A program made the translations under genes and the position numbers. Source: a virus. From it: a stretch of 64,000 nucleotides of DNA. Below the pieces are notes generated by a model. That model saw nothing but the letters and a program-made list of their open reading frames with translations, had not been told where the DNA came from and did not search any database. The DNA is taken from the IMG/VR virus record IMGVR_UViG_3300047557_002560, positions 4,366 to 68,365 of that record. One strand, given 5' to 3'. Position 1 is the first letter of the stretch; every line of letters begins with the position of its first letter. Shown piece by piece: positions 2,752-42,039 of this stretch.

Positions 2752-4203
2752 ATGAAAGACGGTTACATTCCTAAAGACAGAAGAAAGAAGATTCTTTTTT
2801 TATGTGATGATATTAGATTTACTTCTGGTATCTCGACTATGGCTAAAGAGATTGTTATAGGAACATCTCACAGATTCAATTGGATTAATTTAGGTGCAGC
2901 AATCAACCACCCAGAGATGGGTAAGAAGTTAGATGTATCCCAAGATACAAATAACATAGCAGGCATAACTGACTCTCATGTGTTCATCTATCCTGTATCA
3001 GGGTATGGATCTCAAGAGCTAGTAAGACAAATTATCTCACTTGAAAAGCCTGACGCCATAATGTTCTTCACTGATCCAAGGTATTGGATTTGGTTATTCC
3101 AAATGGAGAATGAAATTAGAAAGACCATTCCAATGATCTATCTAAACATATGGGACGACTTACCAGCTCCTATCTATAATAAATCATACTACGAGTCATG
3201 TGATACTTTAATGGCTATCTCTAAACAAACTGAGAACATTAACAGGTTGGTACTTGGTGAGAAAGCTAAGGATAAGATTATCAAGTATGTGCCTCATGGT
3301 ATCAACGATAGTATGTTCTATCCAATCACAGAAGACAAGAAGGAAGACTTTACCAAGCTTCAAGATATGAGAAAGAAGTATTTTGGAGATAACCAACCTG
3401 AGTTTGTTATTACTTACAATGCAAGAAACATTAGAAGAAAGTGTACTTCTGATATTATAGCAGCGTATGCTTTGTTCTGTGATAGTATTGGTAAGGAGAA
3501 AGCGAAGAAGTGCGCACTCCTATTACATACTCAAATGGTAGATGAAAACGGAACTGATCTTCCAGCAGTATCTGAACTACTCTGCAACCCTGAGTATCAA
3601 AGAGTAGTATTCTCAGACTACAGATATTCAACACCAGAAATGAATCTAATGTACAACTGTGGTGATGTGATTATTTTAACATCCTCTAATGAGGGATGGG
3701 GATTATCTCTAACAGAAGGTATGATGTGTGGTAAACCTGTTATTGGAAATGTATCAGGTGGTATGCAAGATCAACTGAGATTTGAAGATGAGAACGGAGA
3801 GTGGATTAAGTTCAGTGAGAAGTTTCCTTCCAATCACTTTGGTACTTACAAGAAACATGGTAAGTGGGCATTCCCAATCTATCCTAGCAACATGAGTATT
3901 GTTGGATCTATTCCCACACCTTACATCTGGGATGATAGAGCAGACTTCAGAGACATTGCTAAGCAGATGGAAAAGGTTTACGATATCAAAGTCAACAAAC
4001 CAGAGGAATACAAAGAAATAAGTAAGGCTGCAAGAGAGTGGGTCACTTCAGACGAGTCTATGATGTCAGCAAGAATAATGTGTAACAATGTTATTGATAC
4101 TATCGAAGAGACATTTGAAAAATGGAAACCTAGAAAGAAGTACGAATTTATAAAAATTGAACCTGCTAAAAGAAAATCAATACTGCATCCCATTGTTTAT
4201 TAA
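2752..4203 (+). CDS. GT-B glycosyltransferase (GT4-like)
   Basis: YVPHGI, RNIRRK, SSNEGWGLSLTEGMMCGKPVI. Confidence 0.9.
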   Translation: MKDGYIPKDRRKKILFLCDDIRFTSGISTMAKEIVIGTSHRFNWINLGAAINHPEMGKKLDVSQDTNNIAGITDSHVFIYPVSGYGSQELVRQIISLEKPDAIMFFTDPRYWIWLFQMENEIRKTIPMIYLNIWDDLPAPIYNKSYYESCDTLMAISKQTENINRLVLGEKAKDKIIKYVPHGINDSMFYPITEDKKEDFTKLQDMRKKYFGDNQPEFVITYNARNIRRKCTSDIIAAYALFCDSIGKEKAKKCALLLHTQMVDENGTDLPAVSELLCNPEYQRVVFSDYRYSTPEMNLMYNCGDVIILTSSNEGWGLSLTEGMMCGKPVIGNVSGGMQDQLRFEDENGEWIKFSEKFPSNHFGTYKKHGKWAFPIYPSNMSIVGSIPTPYIWDDRADFRDIAKQMEKVYDIKVNKPEEYKEISKAAREWVTSDESMMSARIMCNNVIDTIEETFEKWKPRKKYEFIKIEPAKRKSILHPIVY

Positions 4204-4225: not shown

Positions 4226-5515
4226 ATGAAACAGTTGTGTGTTATAAGTGCTCCTCCAGATACGTTTTCAGGATATGGTGCAAGGTCTAGAGATTTCATT
4301 AAAGCTTTATATGAACTAAAAAAAGATGAATGGGAATTCAAAATCATACCACAGAGATGGGGTGCGACTCCTTGGGGCTTTTTAGAAGAGTATAAACAAG
4401 AGTGGGGATGGATGAAAGAGTTTTTTGTATATGATGGAAGACTTACTCAACAACCTGATATCTGGTTTCAAATTACTATCCCAAATGAATTCCAACCTGT
4501 AGGTAAAGTAAACATTGGAGTTACTGCTGGTATTGAAACCACAGTATGTGATCCTTCTTGGATTGATGGTTGTAATAGAATGGATGTAACTCTTGTATCT
4601 TCTGTACATGCGAAAACTGTTTTACATGCAAGTACCTTTGAAGAGAAACATAAAACCAATAATACAGTAAGACAGATAAAATTAGAAAAGCCTGTAGAAG
4701 TTATATTTGAAGGTGTTGATTTAAATAAGTACTTCTTCATTCCAAAAGAAGAATTACCAAGGATAGAACTTGTCAAGGATCTAGATTCTATTAAAGAGTC
4801 CTTTTGTTTCCTGCATGTAGGCCACTGGCTACAAGGTGAACTTGGGGAAGATAGAAAGAACACAGGATTGATGTTGAAGTTATTTTTAGAAACGTTCAAA
4901 GACAAAAAAAATCCTCCAGCCTTTGTTATTAAGACTTCTCACGCAGGAGCAAGTATTATGGATCGTGATGAAGTGTTAAAGAAGATAGATATAATTAGAA
5001 ATAGTATTGGTTCCAAAAACTTACCTAACATTTATTTAATTCATGGTGACATTGATGATAGTGATGTAAACGTTTTGTATAATCATCCTAAGGTTAAAGC
5101 ATTTGTTTCTTTTACTAAGGGTGAAGGATATGGTAGACCACTTGCTGAGTTCTGTCTTTCAAAAAAACCAGTTATAGCATCAGGATGGTCAGGTCACGTA
5201 GACTTTTTAAATCCTGAGTATTCAATTCTACTTCCTGGTAAGTTGACTCAAGTACATCCTAGCTGTGTAGTACAGAACATAATTCTAAAGGAAGCTTCTT
5301 GGTTCTCAGTAGATCCAGGTGCTGCTAGTAAAGCAATGCAGGACGTTTATGAAAACTATGAGAAGTATGAAGTGATGGGTAAGAGACAAGGTCATAAGAT
5401 CAAAACAGAATTTAGTTATGATAATATGGTATTGTTGTTAGGAACTTACTTAGATAGGTATACTCTTAAGAAAGTTGAAATCAAGTTACCACAACTCAAA
5501 AAGATATCTCAATGA
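4226..5515 (+). CDS. GT-B glycosyltransferase (GT4-like)
   Basis: SGYG, RKN, TKGEGYGRPLAEFCLSKKPVIASGWSGH. Confidence 0.9.
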   Translation: MKQLCVISAPPDTFSGYGARSRDFIKALYELKKDEWEFKIIPQRWGATPWGFLEEYKQEWGWMKEFFVYDGRLTQQPDIWFQITIPNEFQPVGKVNIGVTAGIETTVCDPSWIDGCNRMDVTLVSSVHAKTVLHASTFEEKHKTNNTVRQIKLEKPVEVIFEGVDLNKYFFIPKEELPRIELVKDLDSIKESFCFLHVGHWLQGELGEDRKNTGLMLKLFLETFKDKKNPPAFVIKTSHAGASIMDRDEVLKKIDIIRNSIGSKNLPNIYLIHGDIDDSDVNVLYNHPKVKAFVSFTKGEGYGRPLAEFCLSKKPVIASGWSGHVDFLNPEYSILLPGKLTQVHPSCVVQNIILKEASWFSVDPGAASKAMQDVYENYEKYEVMGKRQGHKIKTEFSYDNMVLLLGTYLDRYTLKKVEIKLPQLKKISQ

Positions 5516-31922: not shown

Positions 31923-32331
31923 GAAACCAAAAAGATATAGCTACTCAACAGTTGGGTATGGTGTAATGACTTTATTTGGCGAGAAGTACAGAATGGGTAG
32001 GATTGAGATATTTGATAATCAAAGTGGTTCAAGTTATCAAATAGAAGAAGGATCCTACTCAGTACCTCATGAAATATCAGAAAAATTTGAAGACTTTATT
32101 GAATCGCTAGAAACAGACTTACCAATCAATATAGAGATAGGAAGTCATGAATGGTGTGAAGATGAGTGTGCAAAAGCACTTGGGTTCAAAGACCAAGAAG
32201 AAATGAGAGATCCGGTAAAGGTCAGTGAGTATAGGAGAAAGCAGAATGACCAGTATGCTGTAACAAGAGGATATAAGGATTGGGATGACTTAAAGGCTAA
32301 CAGTGAATTTGGATACAAAGATGAGAAGTAA
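31912..32331 (+). CDS. hypothetical protein
   Basis: coupled ORF. Confidence 0.7.
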   Translation: MENKKPKRYSYSTVGYGVMTLFGEKYRMGRIEIFDNQSGSSYQIEEGSYSVPHEISEKFEDFIESLETDLPINIEIGSHEWCEDECAKALGFKDQEEMRDPVKVSEYRRKQNDQYAVTRGYKDWDDLKANSEFGYKDEK

Positions 32332-32848
32332 GTATATCTTTATTGACATAGACGGACCTCTTGCTTGGGGTACTTGGGGTGGAGGTAAAGTAGTCATTCA
32401 TGAGAATGAACACAACGAATTCACAATACCATATCCTTGGAACCAAGAAGATGCTACTGCACTTCTAAGAATATTAGAACAAACCAATGCTAAGTTAGTT
32501 CTAAGTTCCGATTGGAGAGAACACTATTCGTTTAGACAAATGACTTATATCTTTGCACACTACGGTATACATTGGTCTCTTGTTGATATAACTACTCACC
32601 AACCACTTTGGAATAAACTTAGTGGAGGTAGTGCAGATCACATTAGAGCCTTACAAATACTAAAGTGGGTGAAGGATAATAAAGTAAAAAATTGGATAGC
32701 GATTGATGACTTAGACTTGGGATCATGTTTCAAGTTTATGAAACCAAGAGTACCAAAGTGGAGACACGTACAAGTGGATGGCGATCACGGAGAAGGAGGA
32801 AGACTAAGAGACAAGATAGAAGAGTGTGTAGAGAAGTTAAACAGATAG
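32321..32848 (+). CDS. HAD-superfamily protein (Swiss-army-knife RNA-repair-like)
   Basis: YIFIDIDGPL, LVLSSDWR, WIAIDD. Confidence 0.8.
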   Translation: MRSKYIFIDIDGPLAWGTWGGGKVVIHENEHNEFTIPYPWNQEDATALLRILEQTNAKLVLSSDWREHYSFRQMTYIFAHYGIHWSLVDITTHQPLWNKLSGGSADHIRALQILKWVKDNKVKNWIAIDDLDLGSCFKFMKPRVPKWRHVQVDGDHGEGGRLRDKIEECVEKLNR

Positions 32849-33678: not shown

Positions 33679-34023
33679 ATGAAAAATATTCTGGAAACAA
33701 AAGGAAAGAAGTATTCAGTATACGAGATCACGAATGTGAAGGAGAGATCTAAAAACTACGGAAGGAAGATCTACATTGCGTCAAGTTACATGAAGGAGGA
33801 GGATATCCTCTCTCGCATCAGAAGCATCCAAGATAGCAAGACAGGAAGGGGAGGAACAAAAGACCTAGCTCAGGATATCAGGAGCGCGGGGAAGGATTAT
33901 AAAGATAGTTTTAAAGTAAAGTTAATCAAGTCAGGCCTCTCCCGAGAAAGGGCAGAAGAGGTTAAAGCTAATTTTATTGATAGGGCCGGAAAGGTGTACA
34001 ACCAGGAGATGGAAGTCACCTAG
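33679..34023 (+). CDS. degenerate GIY-YIG-like protein
   Basis: VYEITN...IYIASS...R...F...VYN. Confidence 0.6.
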   Translation: MKNILETKGKKYSVYEITNVKERSKNYGRKIYIASSYMKEEDILSRIRSIQDSKTGRGGTKDLAQDIRSAGKDYKDSFKVKLIKSGLSRERAEEVKANFIDRAGKVYNQEMEVT

Positions 34024-34099
34024 GGACATTCCGAAAAAAATTTCTCTGGGGACGGATCCCAACTGCAGAAAATCTAATTTTAAGAAAACTTTAAGGATT

Positions 34100-34170
34100 T
34101 CACCTAGGCACAGCGTACCTCTGATCTCTCCTGTACTCCCTCGTGAGGTAACAGCCCGTCTTAATTGACA
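34100..34170 (-). ncRNA. putative small RNA, copy 1 of a three-copy family
   Basis: own promoter 34174-34204; motif GGAGAGATCAGAGGTACGCTGTGCC (34107-34131); no ORF. Confidence 0.65.
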
Positions 34171-34173
34171 ACC

Positions 34174-34204
34174 TAAAGGTACGAACAAAAGAGGCCCCAA
34201 GCAA
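34174..34204 (-). promoter_or_regulatory. Bacteroidota-type -33/-7 promoter with dyad
   Basis: TTG-N20-TACCTTTA; GGCCCCAA/TTGGGGCC 34193-34215. Confidence 0.8.
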
Positions 34205-34222
34205 CAGTTGGGGCCATTTTTT

Positions 34223-34429
34223 TTAGTAGTCGAAATATCCCTCTTCCGTATTAATTTCTCTACCTACCAGGTTCTGAAGATTAGAACTATCAAAGTCTGA
34301 AAACTGATGATAGAAAGTCTCTGCGTAGACCAGGGCTGTGGTATTGTCCTCAAAGGTTAATTTGTAGACGGACCCTACAGCTGGGTGGTAAGGTAAGTTT
34401 GTTAGTGTGATGGCTTTGATTTTTTTCAT
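34223..34429 (-). CDS. early hypothetical protein
   Basis: own promoter and AAAATCAAAGTT-ATG leader on minus strand. Confidence 0.8.
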   Translation of the reverse strand: MKKIKAITLTNLPYHPAVGSVYKLTFEDNTTALVYAETFYHQFSDFDSSNLQNLVGREINTEEGYFDY

Positions 34430-34454
34430 AACTTTGATTTTGATTGTGATAGCC

Positions 34455-34485
34455 TAAAGGTACGAACAAAAATTCGTATTGGCAA
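34455..34485 (-). promoter_or_regulatory. -33/-7 promoter (divergent pair, left)
   Basis: TTG-N20-TACCTTTA. Confidence 0.8.
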
Positions 34486-34531
34486 CACTTGGTGCCATTT
34501 TTTTTTTATTTTATTTTTTTTCTATAAACTG

Positions 34532-34562
34532 TTGCCTAGAATGTTAATAGTTGGTATCTTTA
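34532..34562 (+). promoter_or_regulatory. -33/-7 promoter (divergent pair, right)
   Basis: TTG-CCTAGAATGTTAATAGTTGG-TATCTTTA. Confidence 0.8.
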
Positions 34563-34586
34563 GGTTCTAAACCAAAAATCAAAATT

Positions 34587-34790
34587 ATGACAGGTTATCA
34601 ACAACAGCTATTTAGAGATTTAGTTAATTTGAATTGGGAAATTGACCATGGTAATTATCCATCAGTAGTTGAATTTGCACTTGTGGAGCAGTATTGGAAG
34701 GTGAAGCAGGAATTAATAGATGATATGGGTAAGGAAGAGTATGAGCAATTTATAGCTGCAGGCAGGGAGATGTTTGCTCCTGCCAAATAA
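34587..34790 (+). CDS. early hypothetical protein
   Basis: AAAAATCAAAATT-ATG leader. Confidence 0.75.
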   Translation: MTGYQQQLFRDLVNLNWEIDHGNYPSVVEFALVEQYWKVKQELIDDMGKEEYEQFIAAGREMFAPAK

Positions 34791-34797
34791 AAAAAAG

Positions 34798-34828
34798 TTG
34801 GTCCCAATGTAAAAAGTTGGGACCTTCA
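34798..34828 (+). promoter_or_regulatory. promoter/hairpin cassette element
   Basis: TTG-N20-GACCTTCA; GGTCCCAA-N9-TTGGGACC. Confidence 0.7.
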
Positions 34829-34843
34829 TTTAAAATTAAAGTT

Positions 34844-35179
34844 ATGGAAATTATAAACGCTAGTTCTGAAATGCAGATGACACTTTTGTTTGAAGCCTAC
34901 TATCAGCAATGCCCTGATAGAAAGATTGCTTACACTACTTCAGAAGTAAGAGATGGATACCTTCAGTCCTGGATCTGTATGAACGGAATTGAAATGTCCT
35001 ATATGATGTATCAGGGGGAGTATCAAATTATCTTTATGTGTTCAAGGTATTGTGATGAAATGGGAGGTGATGCAAACTACTTGAATACTTTCTACTTCAA
35101 AACTTATGAGGAATGCCTCAAAGTTTGGGAAATGAATGAAAGTGAACTTTACGAACACTTTAAGATTCTTGAATGTTAA
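34844..35179 (+). CDS. early hypothetical protein
   Basis: AAAGTT-ATG leader. Confidence 0.7.
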   Translation: MEIINASSEMQMTLLFEAYYQQCPDRKIAYTTSEVRDGYLQSWICMNGIEMSYMMYQGEYQIIFMCSRYCDEMGGDANYLNTFYFKTYEECLKVWEMNESELYEHFKILEC

Positions 35180-35209
35180 TAATTGGTATCTTTAGTTTAT
35201 CAAAAAATT

Positions 35210-35316
35210 GTTTAAATATCCAATAAGGAGCATATCGTCCCTTTTATCACCCACACTGCTGGCGGTGATACGTGGCAGGGTTATCACTAGCTAGAGGCAG
35301 ATGAGGATATTTAAAC
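35210..35316 (+). ncRNA. candidate structured RNA/leader
   Basis: 12-bp GTTTAAATATCC/GGATATTTAAAC closing stem, internal TATCACC/GGTGATA stem; downstream of TATCTTTA 35187-35194. Confidence 0.45.
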
Positions 35317-35337
35317 TAAATTAAAAAAATCAAAGTT

Positions 35338-35622
35338 ATGCTTAAAGAACACTTGAAAGAAATTAAAGGAGAACTTGTAAGGCACTATGCAGAAAGTTGT
35401 TTGGATATAAGTAAGAATTCTAAAGGGGAAGTTGATTATGAAGCCTACTATGAAGATTTAGAACTTTACTTGGGTGATATCTTTAAAATCGATAGCCTAG
35501 ATGATTTAGATAAATTTATCTATGACACAGGCTTAGATGAAAGAGGATTTGGATTAGATTATTTTGTTGGGGCATATAGTGAAAAGTTGGTACCTTCACG
35601 TAAAGGTGAAATGCAAATTTAA
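35338..35622 (+). CDS. early hypothetical acidic protein
   Basis: AAAAAATCAAAGTT-ATG leader. Confidence 0.75.
   Translation: MLKEHLKEIKGELVRHYAESCLDISKNSKGEVDYEAYYEDLELYLGDIFKIDSLDDLDKFIYDTGLDERGFGLDYFVGAYSEKLVPSRKGEMQI
35567..35598 (+). promoter_or_regulatory. promoter embedded in the 3' end of a CDS
   Basis: TTG-N21-TACCTTCA. Confidence 0.45.
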
Positions 35623-35625
35623 AAA

Positions 35626-35853
35626 ATGAAATCAAGAGAGGAGTATTTGAAAAGGAGGAAGGAGCTTGGGAGATTATCTGTTGAAAAGCTCGAAGCCTTA
35701 TTGGGGAAGCTATACGATAAACGATATGTGGATCAAGACATTGGCTATGAAAGTGAATATCGTTTAGCTTCCTCAGTCTATAGGCAAAAGGTGAAGAAGG
35801 GGGGTAGTCTAATCTTCCATATGAAAAATTTTATCTTATCGGTTGTCGTTTGA
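35626..35853 (+). CDS. early hypothetical protein
   Basis: ORF. Confidence 0.6.
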   Translation: MKSREEYLKRRKELGRLSVEKLEALLGKLYDKRYVDQDIGYESEYRLASSVYRQKVKKGGSLIFHMKNFILSVVV

Positions 35854-35901
35854 AATTTTGTTCGTATGGTTATTATATAACTGTAAACAAATTCAATAAA
35901 T

Positions 35902-36090
35902 ATGACAACAGCTCAAAAACTTAGCACCTTCCGTAGGGCTAGAAGAAATGGCGACATCAGCACACTTGCTGAGCGCACTGGCTATTCTGCAGCCATGGTA
36001 AGCATGACACTTAATGGTCAAAGGAACAACGAAACAATTGTTGATACTGCATACCGCTTGGTACGTAGACGTAAGCAGGCTTTGGCTTAA
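35902..36090 (+). CDS. Cro/XRE-like HTH protein
   Basis: ISTLAERTGYSAAMVSMTLNGQR. Confidence 0.75.
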   Translation: MTTAQKLSTFRRARRNGDISTLAERTGYSAAMVSMTLNGQRNNETIVDTAYRLVRRRKQALA

Positions 36091-36126
36091 ATGCTTTTTT
36101 GATTTTGATTTTTAAATTTAGTCTAC

Positions 36127-36155
36127 GGCCCCTGTTTCTACGGGGGCCTCTTTAT
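36127..36155 (+). terminator. intrinsic terminator
   Basis: GGCCCCTG-TTTCTA-CGGGGGCC then TCTTTATTT. Confidence 0.75.
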
Positions 36156-36193
36156 TTAGAACATATGCCAAAAACAAATATGTGTTGGAACCG

Positions 36194-36224
36194 TTGCCAG
36201 CAATGTTTATAGTTGGTATCTTTA
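36194..36224 (+). promoter_or_regulatory. -33/-7 promoter
   Basis: TTG-N20-TATCTTTA. Confidence 0.8.
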
Positions 36225-36247
36225 GGCCATAATCAAAAATCAAAGTT

Positions 36248-36472
36248 ATGTCAAACATTTATGAAACGCTTTACGAACAAAACGAGCGAAAACTAACTGA
36301 AGCTGTAAAACAGCTTGGCTCTTATGATGCATTGCTTTATTATGCTGTGCAAGCTTTAGAAGGAAGAACAGCTAACTCTCCTGGTGAGGTTGCTTTGATT
36401 CTTCGTAAAAGAAATGAAGAACTTAGAAATGACCAAGACACTTTAATCTTTAACCGTAACCAAAAAGTTTAA
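36248..36472 (+). CDS. early hypothetical protein
   Basis: AAAAATCAAAGTT-ATG leader. Confidence 0.75.
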   Translation: MSNIYETLYEQNERKLTEAVKQLGSYDALLYYAVQALEGRTANSPGEVALILRKRNEELRNDQDTLIFNRNQKV

Positions 36473-36474
36473 TC

Positions 36475-36666
36475 ATGGAAACAAGACACATTTATTCAGC
36501 CCCTGAAAGAGAACTTACACTGCAGGAGTGGTGTGAGGAATTTAGAGTAGGAACTAACCTTCCCACTCCTATTTGCGACAATGCAAAGGATATGATGAAG
36601 ACTTGGACTGTAGTTGAGGAGAAACCAAAATTCAATTTATTAAACTTCTTTTTTAATTTTTTATGA
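36475..36666 (+). CDS. hypothetical protein
   Basis: packed ORF. Confidence 0.65.
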   Translation: METRHIYSAPERELTLQEWCEEFRVGTNLPTPICDNAKDMMKTWTVVEEKPKFNLLNFFFNFL

Positions 36667-36863
36667 AATACACAATCGATAACAAAGCAGAGTATGTAAC
36701 AAAGATATTCACAATCTTAGATGAAAACGAAAATGAATACTTTGTAAGGTTTATGGAAGACTTATCTTATACAGCTGTAGAAGTAGAATCTGATGAAGAT
36801 GGTTTGTTAGGAGAAGACGACCCAAGGTATAAAGAGCTTGTAACTCTTTGTGAAGAAAAATAA
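36663..36863 (+). CDS. hypothetical acidic protein
   Basis: coupled ORF. Confidence 0.65.
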   Translation: MKYTIDNKAEYVTKIFTILDENENEYFVRFMEDLSYTAVEVESDEDGLLGEDDPRYKELVTLCEEK

Positions 36864-36880
36864 AAAAATGGTCCCAACTG

Positions 36881-36911
36881 TTGCTTGGGACCAATTTTGT
36901 TCGTACCTTTA
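36881..36911 (+). promoter_or_regulatory. -33/-7 promoter with dyad
   Basis: TTG-N20-TACCTTTA; GGTCCCAA-CTGTTGC-TTGGGACC 36870-36892. Confidence 0.8.
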
Positions 36912-36935
36912 GGCCATAACAAAAAAATCAAAGTT

Positions 36936-37238
36936 ATGAAAATCACAAGACAAGAAGCTAAGTCAATGATTGACAAGCTAGACAACGGTACTATCTATTC
37001 AGTTACTTTCGTTAAGAAGGACGGAAGTGTTAGGTTAATGAATTCAATTAAAGGAACAAGAAGAGGAGTAAAAGGAGTAGGATTAAAGTTTGATGCTGAA
37101 GAGAGAGGTCTTATTCCTGTGTATGACATTCAGCTAGCTAAGAAGGACCCTCAGAATCCTGACAAGGCTTGGAGAATGGTGAATGTGAATACTTTAACTG
37201 AGGTGTGTGTGAATAAAGAAAGATTTGAAGTAATTTAA
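36936..37238 (+). CDS. WYL-like/SH3-fold small phage protein
   Basis: IYSVTFVKKDGSVRLMN...VYD...WRMVN. Confidence 0.65.
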   Translation: MKITRQEAKSMIDKLDNGTIYSVTFVKKDGSVRLMNSIKGTRRGVKGVGLKFDAEERGLIPVYDIQLAKKDPQNPDKAWRMVNVNTLTEVCVNKERFEVI

Positions 37239-37245
37239 AAAAAAG

Positions 37246-37276
37246 TTGGTCCCAATGTAAAAAGTTGGGACCTTTA
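37246..37276 (+). promoter_or_regulatory. promoter/hairpin cassette element
   Basis: TTG-N20-GACCTTTA; GGTCCCAA/TTGGGACC. Confidence 0.7.
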
Positions 37277-37298
37277 CTAAAATTTAAAAATCAAAGTT

Positions 37299-37439
37299 AT
37301 GAAACGTTTAATAGTATTATTAGTACTTGTATTATTTGTAAGTAGCTGTTATACAGTAACACGTGTCGGTAATTGTAAATATTATACACCTAAAAATTTA
37401 AGTAGTAGGGGTAAACCAAATGCTCCAATAGCGTTTTAA
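37299..37439 (+). CDS. 46-aa early lipoprotein (not in ORF track)
   Basis: MKRLIVLLVLVLFVSSC lipobox; AAAAATCAAAGTT-ATG leader. Confidence 0.75.
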   Translation: MKRLIVLLVLVLFVSSCYTVTRVGNCKYYTPKNLSSRGKPNAPIAF

Positions 37440-37480
37440 GGACATTTTCTTATTTTTAATCTAAACCAAAAATCAAAGTT

Positions 37481-37783
37481 ATGCCAAACAATCTAACAAA
37501 AGCTTTTAAAGCATTACGCAAGGAAGGTTATTTCGCTCGTCAGAATTTTATGTGTTGTCAGAGTTGCGGATGGTCAGCAGTACCGGACGGAAAGGATGAA
37601 AAGGTAGTTTTCTATCACAGCCAAGACGCATCACGAATGAGAGCAGGTGATGATTTTCATTTAGCCTGGTCAGGTGACGGTAATGAGATTTGCAGAATCT
37701 TGAATGAGAACGGAGTGGATACAATGTGGGATGGTTCTAACTCTACAAGAATTACTGTAACGTCTTGGGAAAAATATTTGTAA
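37481..37783 (+). CDS. DUF6891-like hypothetical protein
   Basis: LTKAFKALRKEGYFARQNFMCCQSCG. Confidence 0.65.
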   Translation: MPNNLTKAFKALRKEGYFARQNFMCCQSCGWSAVPDGKDEKVVFYHSQDASRMRAGDDFHLAWSGDGNEICRILNENGVDTMWDGSNSTRITVTSWEKYL

Positions 37784-37789
37784 TAAAAG

Positions 37790-37820
37790 TTGGTACTAAT
37801 GTAAAAAGTTGGTACCTTTA
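37790..37820 (+). promoter_or_regulatory. promoter/hairpin cassette element
   Basis: TTG-N20-TACCTTTA; GGTACTAA/TTGGTACC. Confidence 0.75.
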
Positions 37821-37843
37821 CTTTCTAAACAAAAATAAAAGTT

Positions 37844-38116
37844 ATGCACGAAGAAAAAAACACTCCAGAGTACATTGAGTACTTAGAAAAGAATGCTTAT
37901 CAGAGAGCGGCACTAATGGCACTTCTAGTTAAGCTTATGACTGAGCAGGATGATACTTACACTCTCCGCAATGTCAAAATTTGTATTACTAATTTCTTTA
38001 GTAAGCTTATTGACGAACAGAATTTAGTTTACGACTTAATTGAAAAACATGCTTTTGGAGAGGTAATAACTTTTGCAGAGCAAGAGCACCTCTTAGAAAT
38101 GTTTAAAGAAATTTAG
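37844..38116 (+). CDS. early hypothetical protein
   Basis: AAAAGTT-ATG leader. Confidence 0.7.
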   Translation: MHEEKNTPEYIEYLEKNAYQRAALMALLVKLMTEQDDTYTLRNVKICITNFFSKLIDEQNLVYDLIEKHAFGEVITFAEQEHLLEMFKEI

Positions 38117-38125
38117 AAAAAAAAG

Positions 38126-38156
38126 TTGGTCCCAATGTAAAAAGTTGGGACCTTTA
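38126..38156 (+). promoter_or_regulatory. promoter/hairpin cassette element
   Basis: TTG-N20-GACCTTTA; GGTCCCAA/TTGGGACC. Confidence 0.7.
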
Positions 38157-38194
38157 CAAAGTCAATTATTTTTTAACCATAAAACCTAAAGGTT

Positions 38195-38596
38195 ATGTCT
38201 AGATCAACACAAGCAGAGCAAACAATGTTAAATGCTCTAACAGCTCTTAAGCAAACTTACACCACCACTGCATTCAGAGATTGGAATGCAAGAGAGTTTG
38301 TAACTAAAATGAAAATTGGTGGTCAGCTTCCAACAGTACTCAAAAGAATGAAACTAATTGAGACTGTACCAGGAAGAATAAGGTTAAACGAAAGTATCAT
38401 GACAGTCAGACCAAGAACAGTTCTGAATGCTATGAACAAGTATGCTATTGACCTTAAAACGTCTAGAACCAAAGTTCAAGCACCTACAGTAACTGCTGTA
38501 AAGCAAGAACAAGAAAGTTTTGATGAGATTGTAATTATGCTAGAAAAGAAAATAAAAGAGAAGGTTCTGAGAGAACTTCTAGCTAAACTGAGTTGA
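38195..38596 (+). CDS. early hypothetical protein (possible winged helix + coiled coil)
   Basis: ORF with conserved leader. Confidence 0.7.
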   Translation: MSRSTQAEQTMLNALTALKQTYTTTAFRDWNAREFVTKMKIGGQLPTVLKRMKLIETVPGRIRLNESIMTVRPRTVLNAMNKYAIDLKTSRTKVQAPTVTAVKQEQESFDEIVIMLEKKIKEKVLRELLAKLS

Positions 38597-38617
38597 TTTT
38601 GTGCTTAACTATGGTTT

Positions 38618-38648
38618 ACCCTGAGATTAATTTCTCAGGGTTTTTTTT
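38618..38648 (+). terminator. intrinsic terminator
   Basis: ACCCTGAGA-TTAATT-TCTCAGGGT + T run. Confidence 0.85.
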
Positions 38649-38658
38649 ATGTTAAAAG

Positions 38659-38689
38659 TTGGGTACTATGTATTTTGTTTGTACCTTTA
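38659..38689 (+). promoter_or_regulatory. -33/-7 promoter of sRNA copy 2
   Basis: TTG-N20-TACCTTTA. Confidence 0.8.
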
Positions 38690-38690
38690 G

Positions 38691-38765
38691 GCTGTCATCA
38701 GGACAGGCGCCCGAAGGAAAGGGTGGAGGGATCGGAGGTAGGCTGTTCCGTCCGTCATATACTAG
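38691..38765 (+). ncRNA. putative small RNA, copy 2
   Basis: motif GGAGGGATCGGAGGTAGGCTGTTCC (38725-38749); lies between a terminator and the next promoter; no ORF. Confidence 0.7.
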
Positions 38766-38797
38766 AAAAAAATATATAAAAATTTTGTTTGGTACTG

Positions 38798-38828
38798 TTG
38801 CCTAGAATGTTAAAGGTTAGTATCTTTA
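38798..38828 (+). promoter_or_regulatory. -33/-7 promoter
   Basis: TTG-N20-TATCTTTA. Confidence 0.8.
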
Positions 38829-38852
38829 GGCCATAACAAAAAAATCAAAGTT

Positions 38853-39665
38853 ATGACAAACAACAACACTCTCGAGATGGTAACTCTAACAGAAGAGCAA
38901 ATCCGTCAAGCAGCTCCTCAGGTATATGCTGCTACACCAAAGCCTGGAGTTTCTCAGAAGTACACGTTCTTGCCTACAAGCCGTATCATTGAGGATATGG
39001 ATAAGCTTGGATGGAAGGTAACTCAAGCTAAGGCTAACCGTTACAGGAATGCTGACAATGCTGAGTTCGGTAACCACATTGTTCGTTTCTATCACCCAGA
39101 CATTTTCCTTAAGAACTCTGAAGGTGGTATCGAAGCTTACATCAATGTAGTTGTAATGAACAACCACACCGGTCGTGGAAGCTTTAGATTCGAGATTGGT
39201 ATCTTCCGTTTAGTTTGTAGCAATGGACTTGTGATAAAGGATAAGGACTTTGGTAGCTTCCAACTTCGTCACTCTGGCTACTCTTTCGAAGAGTTGCAGG
39301 GAACTATGCAGACTGCAGTTGACCGCTTACCTGACCTTGTAGGTAGAATCAACATTCTCTCTCAGAAGATTATGACAAAGGAAGAGCAGTTCGATTTCGC
39401 TCAGAAGGCTTTTCAGTTGAGGTCTGCACCTGAGAGATTACTTTCACAAGAGGACTTACAGGATATGTTGACTCCAAGAAGGAAGGAAGACGAAGGCGAT
39501 TCTCTTTGGACAGTGTTCAATAGAATCCAAGAGGGAGTAATGAGAGGAGGCTTCATGGCAGTAGGTAGCAAGGGAAAGCTAAGGAAGGTGAAAGGGATTA
39601 GAAACATTCAGAAGGATATTCAATTGAACCAGTCGATGTGGGAAATGGCTATGTCGTACGCATAG
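38853..39665 (+). CDS. DUF932-family protein
   Basis: SQKYTFLPT, MNNHTGRGSFRFEIGIFRLVCSNGLV, SLWTVFNRIQE. Confidence 0.85.
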   Translation: MTNNNTLEMVTLTEEQIRQAAPQVYAATPKPGVSQKYTFLPTSRIIEDMDKLGWKVTQAKANRYRNADNAEFGNHIVRFYHPDIFLKNSEGGIEAYINVVVMNNHTGRGSFRFEIGIFRLVCSNGLVIKDKDFGSFQLRHSGYSFEELQGTMQTAVDRLPDLVGRINILSQKIMTKEEQFDFAQKAFQLRSAPERLLSQEDLQDMLTPRRKEDEGDSLWTVFNRIQEGVMRGGFMAVGSKGKLRKVKGIRNIQKDIQLNQSMWEMAMSYA

Positions 39666-39686
39666 CTTTGATTGGTTACTAAGTAC

Positions 39687-39715
39687 GAAGGCTTCCGAGA
39701 GGAGGCCTTCCCTTT
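39687..39715 (+). terminator. intrinsic terminator (GNRA loop)
   Basis: GAAGGCTTCC-GAGA-GGAGGCCTTC. Confidence 0.7.
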
Positions 39716-39721
39716 GTGTAC

Positions 39722-39795
39722 ACCTCTAATAAGATAGGAACAACGTACCTCTGATCCCTCCGGTGTCTGTGCCCGCCCTTTCCATAATTGGATAG
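39722..39795 (-). ncRNA. putative small RNA, copy 3
   Basis: own promoter 39798-39828; motif GGAGGGATCAGAGGTACGTTGTTCC (39737-39761). Confidence 0.7.
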
Positions 39796-39797
39796 CC

Positions 39798-39828
39798 TAA
39801 AGGTACGAACTAATTTCCGAAATGGCAA
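39798..39828 (-). promoter_or_regulatory. -33/-7 promoter of sRNA copy 3
   Basis: TTG-N20-TACCTTTA. Confidence 0.8.
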
Positions 39829-39872
39829 CAGTTGGGTCCGGAAAAATAAAAAAAATATTTTTTGTTAAACCG

Positions 39873-39903
39873 TTGCCTGGAATGTTAAAAGTTGGTATCT
39901 TTA
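39873..39903 (+). promoter_or_regulatory. -33/-7 promoter (divergent from sRNA 3)
   Basis: TTG-N20-TATCTTTA. Confidence 0.8.
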
Positions 39904-39941
39904 GGCTGTTAACAAATTAATCGAAACCAAAAATCAAAGTT

Positions 39942-40280
39942 ATGACAAAGCAAGAATTAATCGCACAGTTGGAAGGACCAGCTACAGTAGAATTTACTTT
40001 CATGCCTGTATCGAAAGTAATCGAATTATTGAATGAGCTAGAGGAGACTTCTTCAGTTCCTTCTTTAAGCGATGAAGACATTAGAGACTTAGCTTCAGCA
40101 ATTACTGAAAGTCTAGAAAGTGAAGGATTGGATTTAATTTCAGATTATGATTTGAGTATGAGTTACAGAGAGGTTGAACTTGATAGTGTTACTTTAGATT
40201 CAAATCAAATTGAGAAAGAAGTGAAGAATGCTTTAAAAGACTTCTTTACTTCTAAGGCTGAAGAATCTCTAACAATGTAA
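39942..40280 (+). CDS. early hypothetical acidic protein
   Basis: AAAAATCAAAGTT-ATG leader. Confidence 0.75.
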   Translation: MTKQELIAQLEGPATVEFTFMPVSKVIELLNELEETSSVPSLSDEDIRDLASAITESLESEGLDLISDYDLSMSYREVELDSVTLDSNQIEKEVKNALKDFFTSKAEESLTM

Positions 40281-41523: not shown

Positions 41524-42039
41524 ATGCCAGACTTAAAGAGAATCAGTGTAGAGGAGTCTCAGTTTTATATTCCTCTCCAGCATGGTGATATGGATATATG
41601 TAAGAAGGCTGTTGCCTTTACTTTAACCTCTTGTGAAGATCCAGGTTGGGAGGGTTGGGAGAATGTAGACTACTTCGGTGAAAGTATTTTTGATGCTTCA
41701 GGATCCGTTAGGAAACCAGAGTGGGTCTATGTGTTGGTTAATAGAAGTATGCCGGGCATTTGCAAGGTCGGAATGACTACTACCAGTGTTAGAGAGAGGG
41801 TGGCTGAAATAAATTCCGCGACGGGGGTGATTACTCCTTGGTTTCCGGTTTACTCCTACAAGTGTGTTAATGCTTACATCTTGGAACAAGAAGTGCACTC
41901 AGAACTAGAACAAAGCGGACACAGAGTGAATCCGCGGAGAGAAGGTTTTGAAGTAACTACAAATGAAGTAATCGCTCTTATTGAAAAACTCGGTTGGAAG
42001 TACCAAGCTCCGACCACAAACACAAACGACAATGAATAA
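41524..42039 (+). CDS. T5orf172-domain (GIY-YIG superfamily) protein
   Basis: WVYVLVNRSMPGICKVGMTT..V.ERVAEINSATGV...EQEVH...RREGF. Confidence 0.85.
   Translation: MPDLKRISVEESQFYIPLQHGDMDICKKAVAFTLTSCEDPGWEGWENVDYFGESIFDASGSVRKPEWVYVLVNRSMPGICKVGMTTTSVRERVAEINSATGVITPWFPVYSYKCVNAYILEQEVHSELEQSGHRVNPRREGFEVTTNEVIALIEKLGWKYQAPTTNTNDNE

Follow-up and report, generated by a model that had tools for sequence, protein, structure and literature searches.

A family of structured small RNAs with an invariant purine-rich linker in phages of Bacteroidota

What does a strong phage promoter transcribe when no gene follows it? The question is raised by the early region of a phage genome that we analysed as a window of 64,000 nucleotides, taken from a 68.7-kb IMG/VR virus record (IMGVR_UViG_3300047557_002560, positions 4,366 to 68,365; CheckV completeness 40%) and having near-identical DNA in freshwater and lake metagenomes. 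Bacteroidota use unusual promoters and translation starts, and the combination of -33 TTG / -7 TAnnTTTG promoters with leaders devoid of Shine-Dalgarno sites is one which we take, as established knowledge, to be of their type. With the pattern TTG-N17-21-TAnnTTTA(G/C)(G/A), we find nine near-identical promoters (TTGC..N..GTAYCTTTAGG) within 34.1-39.9 kb of the window. Six of these are followed by a AAAATCAAAGTT-ATG leader within about 20 nt and then by an open reading frame (ORF), whereas the other three lead into a segment bearing a 25-nt motif; small ORFs do overlap these segments, but their start codons precede the -7 box and they have no leader. The motif occurs three times in the 64 kb, at 34107-34131 (minus strand), 38725-38749 (plus strand), and 39737-39761 (minus strand), and in none of 100 shuffled windows, even with three mismatches permitted. 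A preliminary description of this DNA had pointed out the three promoters without leader or ORF and the three motif sites, both of which are borne out here, and had proposed that the segments, hereafter copies 1, 2, and 3, encode one unrecognised, separately promoted noncoding RNA (ncRNA).

We consider it highly probable that the three loci do belong to a real, new structured RNA family. A scan of IMG/VR with the 16-nt core of the motif gave 47 loci, about 20 of which consist of a promoter, a hairpin, GGCG, a second hairpin, and the core. The covariance model R1, built from six of these loci, recovers all three window copies together with additional copies in relatives (five in locus L025 and two in L002), and it finds at least about 50 more members in JGI metagenome contigs; a second IMG/VR scan added nine further contigs. 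The pooled alignment, A8, holds 64 distinct sequences, from which we discounted the GC-rich L107 and L159 as false. The family thus comprises at least 62 credible distinct members, on phage and metagenome contigs of mostly freshwater origin. These contigs measure from about 4 to 174 kb, including genomes of 155-174 kb, and come from lakes and some marine samples.

The number of copies per genome differs, with three in the window, five in genome G005, two in G001, and one in a complete 170-kb genome. These are lower bounds, since a further copy of the copy 1 subtype, in L150 (about 3687-3710, minus strand), was missed by the covariance-model search at E values up to 0.01. The three window copies represent three structural subtypes, the first having orthologous occurrences at L025:696-764 and L105:946-1013 and the third recurring in L013, L025:8995, L119, L157, and L160. 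As each subtype has orthologues in other phages, the paralogues must be old.

No known family was found at these loci. The whole window gave no match to Rfam 15 at the gathering score, and at E values up to 10 over 33800-40000 there were eight weak matches, none of which overlaps the three loci; ARAGORN found no tRNA or tmRNA genes in the window. No match was obtained among GenBank phages by blastn, with the region or with a member RNA, or by tblastn with a 648-aa structural protein, and the near relatives of the window phage are all uncultured. A strict motif scan of 185,579 species genomes gave 48 matches, about the number estimated for chance and none of them a true member: they lie in coding or GC-rich contexts, without promoter or hairpins. 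The covariance model, which matches all six phage records tried, gave no match in 61 Bacteroidota genomes, and a full-text search of PMC and bioRxiv for the core sequence found nothing. The RNA family is restricted to phages, those of Bacteroidota. What is novel is its fold, its invariant linker, and this restriction; a phage-encoded early small RNA is a kind already known.

The members share a fixed order of elements: a first stem (P1), one or few unpaired bases ending in G, a second stem (P2), the linker G-R-A-G-R-GAUC-R-GAGGUA, and a candidate third stem (P3). P1 has 5 bp, of which the outer two are mostly U-G, and P2 at least 5 bp, with a closing C-G pair that takes the first G of the motif. 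The junction between them is a single G in most members and AAGGG in the copy 3 subtype. In P1 and P2, pairing reaches 95%, compared to 39-48% when the partners are slid by one to three columns. Compensatory double changes are found in 98 cells, and the observed score was reached by none of 500 shuffles. Typical swaps are U-A to C-G (13 cells), C-G to A-U, U-A, or G-C (15 cells), and, in P2, CCC/GGG to GGU/ACC. RNAalifold, applied to the model-fitted alignment, returns P1 and P2. The relatives thus contain the motif together with stems that covary strongly, and P3 is no more than compatible with the data. G-U pairs are abundant, and these would be A-C on the opposite strand; therefore, the folded strand is the one transcribed from the promoter.

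Two points count against the fold. The pair counts come from an alignment fitted to the model and are biased towards its structure, although the compensatory swaps are also visible in the raw sequences. In addition, the folding energies of single sequences are no better than those of shuffled ones (mean z -0.3), so that the case for structure rests on covariation. For copy 2, the minimum free energy (MFE) structure of the single sequence includes both P1 and P2, with a z of -2.6.

The linker is the most constant part of the RNA. In a gap-free alignment of 59 members, 13 of the 16 positions are constant (positions 1, 3, 4, 6-9, and 11-16), and the other three, positions 2, 5, and 10, are only ever A or G. 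The linker end, GGUA, could pair with a following U-R-Y-Y across a 3-nt loop to form P3, a hairpin of 4 bp with 83-97% pairing per pair, which we propose tentatively; double changes are not possible in it because its 5′ side is invariant, and only three of the 62 single-sequence MFE structures contain it, which argues against it. An alternative register for P3 was rejected, being paired in 47%. Two longer extensions of the stem under P3 are each paired in about 40-50% of members at the distinguishing positions, apparently in different subgroups, and neither is universal. The reading of a small ORF downstream of GAGGU was rejected by eye, since neither start codons nor reading frames are maintained and the substitutions are not synonymous.

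This fold differs from the one initially proposed, in which ACAG upstream of the motif paired with YUGU to close a purine-rich loop. Both tetramers lie where described, and their pairing is possible in the three window copies. Nevertheless, ACAG forms the 3′ strand of a conserved stem in two copies, that of P1 in copy 2 and that of P2 in copy 1, and is part of the P2 loop in copy 3, while YUGU is the 3′ strand of candidate P3, with which an ACAG/YUGU helix would compete; this helix is therefore not the conserved structure. Similarly, the CGCCC/GGGTG hairpin regarded as an extra of copy 2 is P2 itself, which every member has. The coordinates of all of these elements are given in Table 1.

Table 1. 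Positions of the three RNA copies, their promoters and structural elements, and nearby terminator-like hairpins, in window coordinates
Feature	Position	Strand	Remarks
Copy 1 promoter	34172..34204	-	-33 TTG, -7 TACCTTTAGG; same consensus as the six promoters with leader and ORF
Copy 1 RNA core	34106..34171	-	Covariance-model match, 36.1 bits, E 4.5e-8
Copy 1 P1	34171-34167 with 34160-34156	-	G34155 unpaired
Copy 1 P2 (long)	34154-34151 with 34134-34131	-	Plus an inner CCU/AGG stem
Copy 1 invariant 16-mer	34131-34116	-	
Copy 1 candidate P3	34119-34116 with 34112-34109	-	
Weak terminator-like hairpin and T-run 3′ of copy 1	34046..34062	-	Consensus scan only
Copy 2 promoter	38659..38691	+	
Copy 2 RNA core	38692..38750	+	Covariance-model match, 73.1 bits, E 6.6e-19
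Copy 2 P1	38692-38696 with 38702-38706	+	G38707 unpaired
Copy 2 P2	38708-38712 with 38721-38725	+	
Copy 2 invariant 16-mer	38725-38740	+	
Copy 2 candidate P3	38737-38740 with 38744-38747	+	
Copy 3 promoter	39796..39828	-	Back to back with plus-strand promoter 39873-39905 of the acidic 112-aa gene
Copy 3 RNA core	39736..39793	-	Covariance-model match, 25.5 bits, E 6e-5
Copy 3 P1	39792-39789 with 39784-39781	-	Linker AAGGG between P1 and P2; assigned by eye, the covariance model placing P1 wrongly here
Copy 3 P2 (short)	39775-39773 with 39763-39761	-	
Copy 3 invariant 16-mer	39761-39746	-	
Copy 3 candidate P3	39749-39746 with 39742-39739	-	
GC hairpin between the DUF932 stop codon and copy 3	39687..39710	.	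Terminates the plus-strand gene; scored on the plus strand only

The link to a promoter extends through the family. Among the 55 members with sufficient upstream sequence, 44 have a full -33/-7 promoter upstream, compared to six in the same test made downstream as a control, and all 55 have a -7-like box. From the promoter end to the GAUC core there are 37-56 nt in 43 of the 44 promoter-bearing members and 26 nt in one, that is, the promoter lies directly before P1. On the 3′ side, we often observe either U-rich sequence within 10-25 nt or a hairpin bordered by A and U runs, which would terminate a convergent gene too. From these features, we infer transcription itself and the 3′ end: the conserved core measures about 60-65 nt and the full transcript would probably be 70-130 nt long, reaching about 130 nt for copy 1 if the terminator-like site listed in Table 1 is used. 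For copy 3, the GC hairpin after the DUF932 gene may serve as a two-way stop; no T-run follows it on the minus strand. That the RNA is a discrete, stand-alone transcript seems likely to us. The high-dose early expression suggested in the preliminary description would follow from the promoters only.

We tentatively favour a stand-alone early small RNA whose invariant purine strand would serve to bind a conserved partner, the best candidate being a protein or ribonucleoprotein (RNP) of the host. Host RNA polymerase would start a few bases after the promoter and the first transcribed bases would fold into P1, so that the 5′ end of the RNA is paired; P2 would form beyond a junction of one or a few unpaired bases, the last being G, and would be closed with the first G of the motif. 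The variable, covarying P1 and P2 would then present the unchanging strand (G)RAGRGAUCRGAGGUA, whose last four bases may close P3, as a site that the partner recognises by its sequence. This partner, most likely from the host and either a protein or an RNP, would be conserved among many different pairs of Bacteroidota phages and hosts. Made early from one to at least five gene copies, the RNA would titrate or redirect this partner. Recognition by a protein or RNP fits best because a complement is missing, the purine strand is conserved letter for letter, the stems covary, and the RNA is dosed behind strong promoters, and the diversity of the phages makes a factor of the host the more probable partner. 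From the number of gene copies, dosage appears to be important. Protein binding and a decoy role are what we infer from this build, and the RNA could in particular be a phage decoy or effector that captures a Bacteroidota-wide factor, such as a nuclease or sensor used in defence or a part of the unusual machinery for transcription or translation, a narrower reading that is possible but doubtful.

Several observations weigh against this mechanism. The function could instead lie in the pairing of a short seed of 6-8 nt with host mRNAs. The RNA libraries that touch the region cover only the DUF932 gene, and none holds the small RNAs. A convergent promoter stands at a fixed distance in 14 of 65 members. 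Finally, the neighbouring proteins were rejected as a universal partner, the 'MTKQ' protein encoded next to copy 3 being acidic, and the KRGRP-repeat proteins encoded near many of the relatives' RNAs being absent from the window group.

A base-pairing small RNA, with the purine linker acting as the seed for a short pyrimidine-rich host site in an mRNA or in the 16S 3′ tail, appears rather unlikely to us. Trans-acting small RNAs are usually built in this way, with a conserved single-stranded stretch held by hairpins on both sides, and the three variable linker positions, being A or G only, would be tolerated by a U in the target. Nevertheless, four A positions of the linker are never G, which a U partner would permit. 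The 16S tail had been put forward earlier as a target, on account of the Shine-Dalgarno-like cores of the motif. In two Bacteroidota 16S rRNAs, whose tails end in GGAUCACCUCCUUU, the GAUCACCUCC tail can form a duplex of -17.5 kcal/mol with GGAGGGAUC. This target is not upheld, since about 40% of members have GAAGA or GAAGG in place of GGAGG. An A is found at position 2 in about 40% and at position 5 in about 60% of members; only GAGGU, which lies partly inside candidate P3, is invariant. Moreover, the best duplexes with the 16S and 23S rRNAs of two Bacteroidota rrn operons, at -15 to -18 kcal/mol, are indistinguishable from those of shuffled seeds (-12 to -19 kcal/mol).

Searches for other complements gave a similar picture. 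In the window, no RNA duplex beats the shuffles, and only the antisense strands of the RNA genes themselves match; five phage records have no match of at least 14 of 16 positions outside the RNA genes; and 343 kb of member loci contain 48 complements to 9-mers, compared to 78 expected. In 401 Bacteroidota genomes, searched with up to one mismatch for copies or complements of the motif, the matches are scattered and differ from genome to genome, with no conserved complement.

For some of the family, if not all, convergent promoters hint that the RNA has an antisense role. In 14 of the 65 members, among them L003, L009, L010, L025:600-700, L105, L116, and L131, an opposite-strand promoter of the Bacteroidota type faces the RNA gene, with its -7 box ending 44-47 nt past the motif, and the leader of the neighbouring operon would then be antisense to the small RNA in those phages. 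An explanation in cis, according to which the promoter of the RNA opposes its neighbours and polymerase collision or double-stranded RNA blocks or cuts read-through or opposing transcripts, appears unlikely to us, although such a role would be real at least where promoters face each other. It would agree with the orientation of copies 1 and 3, which run against a gene flow carried nearly entirely by the plus strand, with that of most relatives' RNAs, which likewise oppose the flanking genes, and with the placement of copies 2 and 3 on both sides of the DUF932 gene, a layout found also in L130 and, with extra genes, in L025. It leaves unexplained the 16 letters fixed across very different phages and the covarying stems; many members end at a shared two-way terminator without overlap, copy 2 lies in the sense orientation, and no window copy has an intact opposing promoter. 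By eye, there is an apparent degenerate remnant of an opposing promoter at about 34050-34085, beside copy 1.

Two hairpins after an early promoter are also a feature of the put RNAs of phage HK022. There, putL and putR, of about 60-70 nt, form two stem-loops just after the early promoters, upstream of an operon whose terminators put overrides, and put binds the zinc-binding domain of the polymerase beta' subunit (PMC9378689). The RNAs described here resemble put in size, in having two stem-loops that begin at the predicted transcript start, and in being present in more than one copy per genome in opposite orientations, and they might likewise bind RNA polymerase and alter pausing or termination, in cis or in trans. 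We regard such a function as improbable. In contrast to put, the stems are only about 5 bp long, the conserved hallmark is an invariant purine-rich 3′ linker that put lacks, and no sequence relation was found; besides, copies 1 and 3 are followed on the minus strand by no credible genes that could be antiterminated, and a fresh promoter, at 38798-38830 and driving the DUF932 gene, follows copy 2.

R-loop transcripts prime DNA synthesis at the T4 origins oriF and oriG and in the case of ColE1 RNA II. A purine-rich transcript directly after a strong promoter, with copies in both orientations, could similarly hybridise to the template strand and prime replication, a role that we find very improbable: the conserved tract is only 16 nt long, the covariation of the hairpins indicates the function of a folded RNA, the copy number varies from one to at least five, and GC skew does not switch at 34-40 kb, the last being weak evidence as the skew is dominated by one-strand coding.

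It is likewise very improbable that the motif works at the DNA level, either within a mobile, PeSL-like regulatory cassette or as the operator of a protein, and serves recombination or regulator binding with any RNA being incidental, since compensatory changes and many G-U pairs are found on one strand only and the motif is fixed relative to the transcript start, even if the region is an array of promoter-hairpin cassettes before small early genes, inverted copies flank the DUF932 gene, and a metatranscriptome contig from a relative joins the tail of that gene to its head. The PeSL cassettes of T4-type phages reportedly consist of a host-type early promoter fused to a stem-loop and lie between small early genes, before ORFs. 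Here also a promoter and a stem-loop are repeated among small early genes, but with a 60-nt covarying fold, an invariant linker, and no ORF after them.

The proposed RNA decoy or effector can also be compared to other known regulatory RNAs. Like the c4 antisense RNA of P1 and P7 and the CI RNA of P4 (Rfam RF01695), which are small stable phage regulatory RNAs with exposed conserved seeds, it has paralogous sites repeated within the genome; in those systems the repeated sites may be complementary, whereas here no complementary sites occur outside the RNA genes themselves, and there is no Rfam match. With the CsrB/RsmZ sponges and with phage RNA decoys such as RNA anti-CRISPRs and pseudo-ToxI, it shares a conserved exposed motif in an ncRNA whose high dose is, in our case, presumed. 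CsrB and RsmZ display several GGA motifs in hairpin loops, whereas here each RNA has a single linker motif, conservation does not extend to the hairpin loops, and the GAAGAGAUC variants lack GGA. ToxI and pseudo-ToxI consist of tandem direct repeats of about 36 nt, from which the units are processed, whereas there is no tandem array at or near our loci, the copies being 1-4.6 kb apart and each having its own promoter. RNA anti-CRISPRs mimic the CRISPR repeat of the system present in the host; the RNA described here is not known to resemble the repeats of Cas13b, Cas12a, or Cas9 II-C.

We know of few phage-encoded small RNAs with a defined family and fold, and of almost none for phages of Bacteroidota, hosts which, as far as we are aware, lack Hfq, ProQ, and CsrA. 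A compact 60-nt core with 13 invariant letters, confined to phages and present in multiple copies, suggests a dosage-dependent job in early infection. The covariance model and the alignment provide a handle for detection in metatranscriptomes and for pull-down. Should the partner turn out to be a protein of the host's defence or core machinery, the RNA would represent a new counter-measure as well as a means of probing that machinery, and if the decoy or effector reading is true, it would be the first RNA-based tool for host takeover or counter-defence described for phages of Bacteroidota.

Terminator-like sites are in excess, 15 being observed compared to 4.3 expected. The copy 1 promoter overlaps the terminator hairpin of the upstream 68-aa gene, and terminator-promoter cassettes, in which a GC hairpin merges with the -33 element of the promoter that follows, recur between the small early genes (34193-34215, 34800-34824, 36869-36893, and 37792-37816). 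Metatranscriptome contigs from relatives touch 38841-39161 and 39680-39714, and three of them cover the 5′ region of the DUF932 gene. One has 38841 as its first base, which is 11 nt past the -7 box of the DUF932 promoter, contig ends not being evidence of a transcript start. In one contig, 39714 is followed directly by 38841, pointing to DUF932 copies in tandem or to a circular cassette in the relative concerned.

Two families of small proteins recur beside the RNA. The acidic 'MTKQ' protein, encoded in the window at 39942-40280 (plus strand, 112 aa), belongs to a family of 104-174 aa without a Pfam or PHROG match. In 11 of the 15 family members found, the gene is upstream of the RNA and divergent from it, an arrangement kept in distant phages; the protein could be a DNA-mimic-like early protein. 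In 32 of 56 loci, basic proteins with AT-hook-like KRGRP...NSARQ repeats are encoded no more than 3 kb away from the RNA, for example at L003:258-509 and at L027:2955-3200 and 3271-3915; they have no known domain and are absent from the window. No known RNA-binding domain was found in the DUF932, 'MTKQ', or KRGRP-repeat neighbours. The ribosomal protein bS21 was also rejected as a partner, being encoded in only two of five related records: it is present above the cut-off (PF01165) at G001:C1:14586-14744 and G002:C1:19052-19210 and absent from the window's record and from two near-complete relatives.

Genes for two proteins with recognisable domains flank the early region on the plus strand, a HAD domain protein of the 'Swiss Army Knife' RNA-repair type (PF18143) at 32321-32848 and a T5orf172 (GIY-YIG-like) domain protein at 41524-42039. 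Convergent with copy 1 is a 114-aa ORF (33679-34023), which has no Pfam match and begins with a GIY-YIG-like YSVYEITN; its homologues adjoin the RNA in L001 and L002.

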